From an uncultured Acidobacteriota bacterium (lineage in GTDB: Bacteria > Acidobacteriota > Thermoanaerobaculia > UBA5066 > Gp7-AA6), in the NCBI GenBank assembly GCA_963764715.1, contig CAVXTP010000001.1, positions 11,504 to 75,503 of the forward strand: 64,000 nucleotides of DNA. The letters run 5' to 3'. The translations under genes and the position numbers were made by a program. The notes beneath the pieces are model-generated. The model was not told the DNA's origin. It did no database searches and saw only the letters and a list, made by a program, of their open reading frames with translations. This document shows positions 24,001 to 24,334 of the stretch, in pieces (positions within the stretch are counted from its first letter, which is position 1; the number at the start of each line of letters is the position of its first letter).

Positions 24001-24090
24001 TGGCGGAGAGGGGGGGATTCGAACCCCCGGTACGTTTTGCGTACACACGCTTTCCAAGCGTGCTCCTTAAGCCACTCGGACACCTCTCCG
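24001..24090 (-). tRNA. tRNA-Ser (anticodon GGA)
   Basis: Manual cloverleaf: acceptor GGAGAGG/CCTCTCC, anticodon loop TTGGAAA, long variable arm, T-arm GGGGGTTCGAATCCCCC, CCA encoded. Confidence 0.85.
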
Positions 24091-24150
24091 GGGGCGGGGA
24101 ATCCTACAACACCAGGCGACAGTCGCATGCGAGTAAACGCCGCGCGCCGC

Positions 24151-24232
24151 GCGGCGTTGCCTACTGCCGGGGGTCTGCCTCTGGTGGTCGGCTCCAAGCG
24201 TGCTCCTTAAGCCACTCGGACACCTCTCCGGG
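24151..24232 (-). repeat. mosaic repeat: duplicated 5' half of tRNA-Ser (acceptor through anticodon loop) fused to core CCGACCACCAGAGGCAGACCCCCGGCAGTAGG
   Basis: 24195-24232 repeats the tRNA 5' 38 nt. The adjacent core also occurs twice downstream of tRNA-Ser(CGA) at 53.7-54.0 kb. Confidence 0.7.
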
Positions 24233-24334
24233 GCGCGGAATCCTAACAGGGTCACCGACCATAAACGAAGGGTCCGAGAGCCTGCGCCGAGTGATGTCCG
24301 GACGTTTTAGGGTTAGGGGGGTTACACTCAACGC

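Follow-up and report, generated by a model that had tools for sequence, protein, structure and literature searches.

A repeated 60-nt element joined to truncated serine tRNA gene copies in Thermoanaerobaculia

Why should a bacterium carry, directly beside an intact serine tRNA gene, a second copy of only the 5' half of that gene? The question is raised by a locus at 24 kb in a stretch of 64,000 nt (hereafter the window) from an uncultured acidobacterium of the class Thermoanaerobaculia (assembly GCA_963764715.1, contig CAVXTP010000001.1), where the tRNA-Ser(GGA) gene on the minus strand is preceded by such a truncated copy. An earlier note on this locus had reported the copy and its fusion to a sequence core that recurs beside tRNA-Ser(CGA) at 53.7 kb. 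Our analysis goes beyond that note in that the core belongs to a 60-nt element, here called element E, which has defined borders, a structure of its own and a dinucleotide that it prefers as target, and which also occurs away from tRNAs. E is a previously undescribed miniature element of the Thermoanaerobaculia that resembles repetitive extragenic palindromes (REPs), and we consider below how it may have come to lie next to pieces of tRNA genes.

The truncated copy and the sequence joined to it

A repeat search of the window revealed an exact direct repeat of 41 nt (24053-24093 and 24193-24233) shared by the intact gene (ARAGORN; Rfam tRNA model, 56.1 bits) and the partial copy, which confirms that the latter arose by genuine duplication of the 5' half of the tRNA. 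The repeat is extended by a leader block of 16 nt with 94% identity (24091-24106 and 24230-24245), in which the two copies differ by one indel and one mismatch, and they are alike over ~54-57 nt in total. The earlier note had described a 38-nt copy of the tRNA; the duplication of the 5' half up to the anticodon stands, but the duplicated block is larger and consists of a leader of 17 or 16 nt ("TAGGATTCC(C/G)CGCCCC") followed by positions 1-37 of tRNA-Ser(GGA). Since the duplication spans both leader and tRNA 5' half, it points to an event at the DNA level. The partial copy stops at ...CTTGGA, after anticodon base 36, and directly adjoins GCCGACCACCAGAGGCAGACCCCCGGCAGTAGGCAACGC, which is followed by a GC hairpin of 10 bp. 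On the minus strand the order is thus leader copy, tRNA positions 1-37, element E, spacer, leader and intact tRNA-Ser(GGA) (Table 1). A 39-mer of this locus occurs once in the window, with none expected.

The pattern CCACCAGNGNNNGACCCCCGNNNNNAGG, which describes the 28-nt core of E, has five matches in the window where 0.04 would be expected, once at 24 kb and four times at 53781-54013 beside tRNA-Ser(CGA), so that both loci indeed carry the same core. They also mirror each other, as had been claimed, with a 5' duplication at 24 kb and a 3' duplication at 53.7 kb, the latter in the form of two 170-nt tandem units that each end in the T-loop-to-CCA part of the tRNA. Within each unit, the 3' part of the tRNA (T loop through CCA) and the trailer are followed by 11 nt that copy the 5' strand of the T stem with the loop (TCGTGGGTTC(A/G)) and by an element E_a with a second element, E_b, nested in it. 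The sequence CCTCGAGAGAGTCGTGGGGTCGGCG after the last repeat copy (54093-54120) has the look of a third unit that has lost the greater part of its E by deletion.

Element E as a structured, inserting repeat family

Among genomes representing one per species across GTDB, the core pattern matches 65 loci, of which ~55 lie in metagenome-assembled genomes (MAGs) of Acidobacteriota/Thermoanaerobaculia, several per genome, while the remaining matches, in other phyla, look like chance. These loci, designated by L numbers, were searched as pieces of 8 kb each. A covariance model of E (R1) found 83 copies in 55 loci of these MAGs and, in the window, the five known cores only. The earlier note would have been refuted by absence of the core from other sites next to tRNAs, but in related genomes many such sites carry it. 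No Rfam family matched E at the gathering threshold or at an E-value <= 10, the only hits being tRNA, spurious tRNA-derived partials and weak CRISPR-repeat noise on the hairpin; viral contigs contained no match to the core pattern, and no description of the element was found in the papers searched.

That E is a discrete insertion is supported by three lines of evidence, of which the nested case is the first. In the window E_a is interrupted after ...TAGGGA by a complete E_b of 62 nt, and the same holds for L012, whereas L049 and L043 carry an uninterrupted E_a (...TAGGGAACGCTGCGCG...) that represents the empty site (alignment A2). This comparison of filled and empty sites sets the borders of E at GCCG... 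on the 5' side and ...GGTAAC(CC) on the 3' side, without target duplication. A longer element with a conserved tail TC(A/G)(A/C)ATG was considered and rejected, as it was seen at five loci only, which may be orthologous or the likeness coincidental. The second line is given by empty orthologous sites. Two metagenome contigs, L090 and L076, have neither a partial copy nor E in the 105-220 nt upstream of tRNA-Ser(GGA); in L090 the downstream ECF sigma gene region is ~80% identical to that of the window and the tRNA differs at one base, and in L076 the tRNA-Ser(GGA) is identical to that of the window. E is present in just one of 80 metagenome loci that carry this tRNA-Ser(GGA) segment. Third, the architecture varies between genomes: L012 and L049 possess an E-bearing array upstream of tRNA-Ser(CGA) that the window does not have, and at tRNA-Ser(GGA) there is one copy of E in the window and L037 and there are two in L009.

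Fifty distinct copies of E were aligned over 62 columns (alignment A1), on which a three-helix structure was tested. In helix P-a (columns 1-3 with 32-34), the pair 1-34 is GC in 29 copies, CG in 12, UA in eight and GU in one, and is unpaired in none. The P-b hairpin of ~10 bp has 8 of its 10 pairs changed on both sides and 92% of its cells paired, while the inner helix P-c is weaker (55% paired), with A.G and G.A oppositions that become C-G or A-U in some copies. The observed covariation was reached by none of 500 shuffles, and slid controls collapse. In P-a and P-b together, 12 G.T oppositions stand against a single A.C, which places the selected fold on the tRNA-sense strand, either as RNA or as single-stranded DNA. 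Thermodynamic folding of single sequences recovers P-b only (z = -1.7), the evidence for P-a being the covariation alone. The 3' half of E consists of GTAG, then G, then a GC-rich imperfect palindrome; the GTAG (A1 columns 29-32) is found in ~41 of the 50 copies (~82%), columns 29-30 being free (N) in the search pattern. The bases XCC at the 5' border covary with GGX', which overlaps the last base of this tag at the foot of the palindrome.

The sites at which E lands share a short sequence. In the left flanks of 73 full-length copies, position -1 is A in 71% (G in 23%), position -2 is G in 75% and position -3 is C or T in 78%, and at sites with a known uninterrupted form the GA is part of the target and an A follows. 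Anticodon-loop targets are CTTGGA^AAGC in tRNA-Ser(GGA) and CTCGA^AAAC in tRNA-Ser(CGA), those in T loops are TTCGA^ATCC and TTCA^AATCC, the target inside E itself is GGGA^ACGC, and at the ends of protein genes the targets CCATGA^AGG, GAGGA^ACA and GATGA^ACA were found. Serine tRNAs for UCN codons always have an NGA anticodon, with A at position 37; NGA and A37 together supply GA^A, which offers a simple explanation for the occurrence of 5'-half duplications at serine tRNAs alone. A comparison by blastn of the flanks of E with the tRNAs of the loci placed E after tRNA position 36/37 in the window, L037, L009, L012 and L049. In L004, L031 and L059 it lies in the D loop of tRNA-Ser(TGA), and L057, which is cut at the contig end, has the same downstream arrangement. 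In about 20 copies E is immediately followed by the terminal 17 nt of a Ser, Met or Ala tRNA (T loop to CCA, from about position 60), and a T-loop case in tRNA-Arg (L039) was read by eye. Altogether, sequence derived from tRNAs adjoins ~33-35 of 88 copies (roughly 40%), and these copies without exception have the same sense as the tRNA piece; further copies lie in hairpin-forming repeats of two families, GTCATCCTGAGCG... and GTAGGGGCGG....

Several arrangements at these sites deserve mention in their own right. An older tRNA-Ser(GGA) paralogue with its own leader in L009 (6770-7110) holds two copies of E, which occupy its anticodon loop and its T loop, respectively. A composite unit recurs in L040 (2950-3250, 4400-4560, 6560-6740), L041 (4700-4900), L050 (5300-5500) and L062 (3800-3950, 7480-7640), in most copies with the order antisense tRNA-Ala T-arm fragment (GGATCGAACCGTCGACCTCC), G/C hairpin, REP-like GTCACCCGAGCGAAGCGAGGCGTGAC, T-stem 5' strand, E and the last 17 nt of tRNA-Ala. 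Some of these units are kilobases away from any tRNA-Ala gene. E is also found, in antisense, immediately behind the stop codon of genes for large proteins whose C-terminal repeats are SLH-like (...VKTFGL(Q)*) in L017 (5150-5290), L036 (2400-2650), L045 (7800-7970) and L026 (1200-1420), and the last 24-29 nt of these genes, including the stop codon, are repeated beyond E with 100% identity in L017 and L036. At many loci spurious long open reading frames (ORFs) are extended by the reverse complement of E, which encodes ...YCRGS(A/S)(A/S)GGR..., e.g., L035 534-869 (-) and L044 4481-4828 (-).

Table 1. Coordinates of features in the window and, in the last row, of inverted units in related loci
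Feature	Position	Strand	Basis or remark
tRNA-Ser(GGA), intact	24001..24089	-	ARAGORN; Rfam
Leader of intact gene, TAGGATTCCCCGCCCCC	24106-24090	-	sequence
Second direct-repeat copy: 17-nt leader (24090-24106) and positions 1-37 of intact gene	24053..24106	-	repeat search
Spacer, 26 nt, TCGCATGCGACTGTCGCCTGGTGTTG	24107..24132	-	sequence
Element E, 60 nt, with tail TAC	24133..24192	-	covariance model R1, 83.4 bits, E-value 5e-18
E, helix P-a	24192-24190 with 24161-24159	-	covariation
E, conserved core CCACCAGAGGCAGACCCCCGGCAGTAGG	24187-24160	-	contains GTAG tag, 24164-24161
E, P-b GC hairpin	24158-24136	-	covariation and hairpin fold
tRNA-Ser(GGA) positions 1-37 of partial copy, ending ...CTTGGA	24229-24193	-	sequence
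Partial (pseudo) tRNA-Ser(GGA) copy including leader copy	24193..24245	-	repeat search; blastn to tRNA, 37/37 identical
Leader copy, TAGGATTCCGCGCCCC, with TAGGAT box	24245-24230	-	repeat search
tRNA-Ser(CGA), intact	53655..53744	+	ARAGORN; Rfam
Two 170-nt tandem units	53725..54064	+	repeat search
Outer element E_a (53776-53810 and 53873-53897, split at GGGA^AC)	53776..53897	+	R1 matches; alignment A2
Nested element E_b, 62 nt	53811-53872	+	R1 matches; alignment A2
E_a/E_b arrangement again, 170 nt downstream	53946-54067	+	R1 matches
Terminal copy of tRNA 3' part and trailer, then remnant (GAGTCGTGGGGTCGGCG)	54065..54114	+	repeat search
REP hairpins, GTAGGGGCGG(G/C)(G/C)C-loop-...CCGCCC	11475, 11620, 18235, 20892, 20936, 45901		inverted REPIN-like pair at 20892-20945
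ECF sigma factor gene	23259-23900	-	
CGNR/ABATE regulator gene	24335-24973	+	
Two Ser/Thr kinase genes	25333-30546	-	
Inverted units of T-stem 5' strand, E and last 17 nt	L021 3071-3129, L028 137-196, L043 6847-6906, L071 244-316		~70-100 nt upstream of tRNA-Ser gene

The neighbouring CGNR/ABATE and kinase genes are as the earlier note had them. A minus-strand ORF of 286 aa that runs across the locus and has no Pfam match is probably spurious, and a bacterial small signal recognition particle RNA (Rfam RF00169, 68 bits) lies ~1.2 kb away at 22681-22780 (-). A TAGGAT box is conserved 11-19 nt upstream of tRNA-Ser genes, in the window at 24090-24106, 24230-24245 and 53630-53654 and also in L049 and L090. 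It is likely the -10 element of the tRNA-Ser promoters and falls inside the duplicated block; a scan for sigma-70-type consensus sequences, which does not pick out the TAGGAT box, was uninformative, with nothing found upstream of the partial or the intact copy. R1 also gives a weak match of 26 bits on the opposite strand at 24105-24161 (+), where P-b is palindromic and CTGGTG of the spacer complements CACCAG of the core; this match is probably coincidental, since L037 is without the spacer CTGGTG.

How the duplications may have arisen

Flanking direct repeats were searched for at every copy of E. They are found at tRNA genes and at the 3' ends of genes for large SLH-like proteins, with lengths of 24-120 nt (53 nt in the window, 61 in L037, 24 in L017, 29 in L036, 74 in L040, 61-78 in L046 and ~120 in L012 and L049), whereas copies in REP-like hairpin contexts and other non-genic sites have no flanking repeat. 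One complete gene is kept in each case of duplication, and the E-bearing copy is a fragment with both strands of the stem that hosts E and little more. In L049, for example, the order is [-70..+36], E, [+40..+53] and then [-70..intact tRNA], and in the T-loop cases just 11-12 nt (T-stem 5' strand and TTCGA) precede E, in several different tRNAs. Tandem arrays of 106-170-nt units are common, and older outer copies persist as remnants that consist of P-b only. A simple target-site duplication of the form [repeat][E][repeat] was rejected as a general model, the pseudo-copy being present on both sides of E in L009, L012, L049 and L031. There it is clearer than in the window, where the start of the spacer, GCATGCG, weakly resembles the 3' strand of the anticodon stem, GCGTGTG; judging from this slight similarity, the spacer is probably the decayed remainder of the pseudo-copy joined to upstream sequence.

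The explanation that accounts best for these observations, and in which as a whole we have moderate confidence, is that the upstream copy is a truncated tandem duplicate of the tRNA-Ser(GGA) region with E inserted in its anticodon loop, after GGA. E itself would be a non-autonomous miniature repeat specific to the Acidobacteriota/Thermoanaerobaculia lineage and either still mobile or mobile until recently. The family membership, structure, discrete insertion, target dinucleotide and fixed orientation of E are established by the data above; E inserts in one direction, 3' of GA (less often GG), in exposed loops, that is, serine-tRNA anticodon loops, T loops (TTCGA^A), the loops of REP hairpins and another E. 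It would move as single-stranded DNA by means of an HUH/Y1-type enzyme (a REP-associated tyrosine transposase, RAYT, or an IS200/IS605-like one) encoded elsewhere in the genome, and the tRNA sense strand may be hit because it is often single-stranded. An insertion in a single essential gene would survive only if a partial duplication leaves one intact copy, after which the orphan E-bearing copy would be trimmed. Such survivorship would explain why an intact gene always lies beside the E-bearing fragments, and why there are no duplications in REP-like contexts. Transposition as a single strand by an HUH enzyme is favored by the strand-specific structure, the fixed orientation, the insertion 3' of a short sequence, the lack of a target duplication in the nested case and the preference for loops and for the sense strand of genes with heavy transcription.

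E has features of two known groups of elements. RAYT (TnpAREP), a Y1 HUH enzyme, binds folded, single-stranded GTAG REPs, and the tag guides the choice of a dinucleotide cleavage site, as does the guide tetranucleotide of IS608 (PMC8266576). Like these REPs and REPINs, E carries GTAG directly 5' of a GC-rich imperfect palindrome, has a strand-specific structure of the single strand, and is intergenic, non-coding and non-autonomous. The way in which the XCC/GGX' bases next to the tag would pair with the distant boundary recalls the pairing of guide and cleavage site (PMC8266576), and occurrence within other palindromes, as seen for E, has been reported for the REPs of some species (PMC3733652). 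Ordinary REPs are found in the same genome: the window contains six canonical GTAGGGGCGG REPs against 0.15 expected, which may imply a RAYT-type system. In them, as in E, G and a palindrome come after the tag. With the insertion sequences (IS) of the IS200/IS605 family and the palindrome-associated transposable elements, E shares one-way insertion 3' of a short sequence without target duplication (nested case), hairpins near both ends, structure on one strand and a preference for single-stranded DNA.

E also differs from these groups, and several findings weigh against our preferred mechanism. A REP unit is an imperfect palindrome of 20-40 nt, a size that GTAG plus P-b (~30 nt) fits, whereas the whole of E has 60 nt, with a 28-nt, largely unpaired and highly conserved 5' core; this core is conserved beyond the needs of pairing, in part forced by the search pattern. 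TnpAREP cleaves at CT or CA, while the boundaries of E are at GA^. REPs typically exceed 100 per genome, whereas the apparent copy number of E is low (5-10 strict matches to the core pattern per MAG in the 8-kb pieces). The strong preference for tRNA gene loops and the long partial gene duplications likewise set E apart from REPs. As to IS200/IS605, the hairpin enclosed by P-a (inner stem P-c) and P-b differ from each other in sequence and form and are unlike the ends of these elements, the target of E is only a dinucleotide, and no parent IS or TnpA adjoins any of the 83 copies. IS200/IS605 elements are not known to occur in tRNA loops or with gene-restoring duplications. A phmmer search found no Y1 transposase or RAYT in the 64-kb window or the 55 loci, with approximate IS608, IS200 and Escherichia coli RAYT queries of low sensitivity and 8 kb per locus. 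All-against-all clustering of the ORFs of the loci revealed no recurrent enzyme family, only the large SLH-like C-terminal-repeat proteins recurring beside E; between the paired E copies of L035 and L044 the translated ORFs resemble nucleotidyltransferase/HEPN, HigA-like and PadR-like proteins, without a transposase. In L009 an intact tRNA with a TAGGAT leader lies inside the hairpin loop of the second E (left arm AGCGGCGGCCGC, right arm GCGGCCGCCGCT), for which the preferred mechanism does not account, and units of T-stem 5' strand, E and last 17 nt stand upstream of their cognate tRNA-Ser genes in the opposite orientation (Table 1). Finally, peel-and-paste transposition alone makes no duplications of 50-120 nt, and in different tRNAs the junction of the duplication falls again and again at the foot of the host stem. 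This speaks for a mechanism, instead of chance and selection, to which the structure or the chemistry of insertion would contribute. Where it could be checked, the 3' fragment of the inverted units matches the neighboring tRNA.

Alternative explanations

It is possible, though we give it a rather low probability, that E is moved by a single-strand mobility system that has not been described before, acting at the DNA level by an HUH enzyme or by RNA ligation and reverse transcription, whose insertion chemistry itself would make the gene-restoring duplication. Its target rule, GA and then A in an exposed loop, would make the anticodon loops of all serine tRNAs and the T loops of many tRNAs the favored sites of insertion. 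The same low estimate covers a bolder variant in which the 28-nt core would be a new small motif, self-cleaving or protein-recruiting, that sets the 5' boundary.

We consider it unlikely that E is a functional structured RNA, e.g., a processing signal, a small self-cleaving ribozyme at the 5' edge or a protein-binding small RNA, that sits behind tRNA promoters, uses the tRNA pieces as scaffolds and is kept by host selection. Such a role would fit a structure on the tRNA-sense strand with G.U pairs, recurrent A.G and G.A pairs that are Watson-Crick in some copies, a sharp 5' boundary and a very conserved unpaired core. It would also fit the recurrence of one architecture, shared by four species at tRNA-Ser(TGA) and by the window and L037 at tRNA-Ser(GGA), and the duplicated leader contains the TAGGAT box, so that the partial copy could be transcribed. 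However, Rfam offers no match, even at an E-value <= 10, where E lies at the 3' end of an SLH-like gene, its orientation is opposite to that of the genes on either side, and there are inverted copies upstream of tRNAs. The nesting and the empty sites in close relatives have the look of insertions, and decayed copies keep the P-b hairpin only.

Less likely still is a route through RNA, in which tRNAs cleaved in their loops would supply fragments for ligation to the RNA of E, or E and its flank would form a small circular RNA, and the product would be reverse-transcribed and recombined at the homologous tRNA to give the 106-170-nt units. The junctions in D, anticodon and T loops coincide with tRNA cleavage sites and the orientation is always sense. 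Every 3' fragment consists of the terminal 17 nt through CCA, which is the stretch copied by a reverse transcriptase before position 58, by the logic of the retroviral primer-binding site. Tandem arrays of short units and the adjoining sense and antisense tRNA-Ala pieces would also be accounted for. Yet the duplicated blocks hold the promoter-proximal leader, up to 70 nt of upstream DNA and trailers past CCA, which argues for the DNA level; moreover, no reverse transcriptase was found among the ORFs near any copy of E, and the nested insertion needs no tRNA.

That the repeats are attL/attR remnants of a deleted integrative element that targeted tRNA genes is very improbable and effectively excluded. 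Such elements do resemble the two loci in having direct repeats that contain a portion of a tRNA gene, breaks in the anticodon and T loops, reportedly the classical crossover sites of tyrosine integrases, and an intact tRNA that is kept, and at 53.7 kb it is a T-loop-to-3'-end block that is repeated. At 24 kb, in contrast, the repeat is the 5' half with leader instead of the 3' part, the repeats enclose just 86 nt, and there is no integrase nearby, the neighbors being CGNR, ECF sigma factor and kinase genes. Furthermore, the same 60-nt element is found at tRNAs for Ser, Met, Ala and Arg but also in REP hairpins and nested in a further copy of E, and it lies within a loop of the pseudo-copy, between the two strands of a stem, rather than between complete att cores. 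Chance similarity or an assembly artifact, for which only the derivation of many related sequences from MAGs would speak, has a negligible probability and is likewise effectively excluded by the exact 41-nt repeat, by five cores against 0.04 expected and by the same architecture in independent assemblies from different projects and assemblers.

Among further known elements, IS1634/IS1549-type IS make variable target duplications of tens to hundreds of bases and thus resemble E in the long and variable duplications, but they are DDE transposons of 1.5-2 kb with terminal inverted repeats, whereas E is not always exactly bounded by the repeat, as its pseudo-copy runs a few bases past it. Non-canonical introns and disrupted tRNAs of archaea also have short insertions in D, anticodon and T loops, sometimes two per gene (cf. 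L009), but E is bacterial and its interrupted copies are truncated and stand beside an intact gene. Other candidates were rejected. By eye, an HDV (hepatitis delta virus)-like ribozyme would have a P1 of merely 3 bp, a kink-turn misfits in bulge and G.A register, the IS91 targets GTTC/CTTG are offset by 1-2 nt and not general, and the integron attC core RYYYAAC/GTTRRRY does not match. A classical miniature inverted-repeat transposable element is contradicted by the lack of inverted repeats at the locus, by ends (GCCGACC.../...GTTTAC) that are not complementary and by a nested case without short duplication. A group I intron requires a core of at least ~200 nt against the 60 nt of E, no Rfam match was obtained at an E-value <= 10, and the 3' half of the interrupted copy is missing.

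If the preferred explanation is right, E would represent a new kind of REP-like miniature element and would explain why half and quarter tRNA genes stand beside intact ones, by a rule of insertion at GA^A in loops that the serine anticodon itself satisfies. It would be a natural system in which to study how transposon hits in single-copy essential RNA genes are survived, and a possible source both of tRNA gene duplication and of false or missed tRNA calls in the annotation of MAGs; in high-GC genomes, spurious ORFs derived from E could seed false protein families as well. E would also offer a compact structured DNA/RNA motif for in vitro assays with RAYT/TnpA enzymes, and its covariance model is already at hand. 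Should an undescribed mobility system be at work instead, it would be a transposon with built-in repair of its essential targets. For the Thermoanaerobaculia, a poorly studied class, E would be a diagnostic repeat family.

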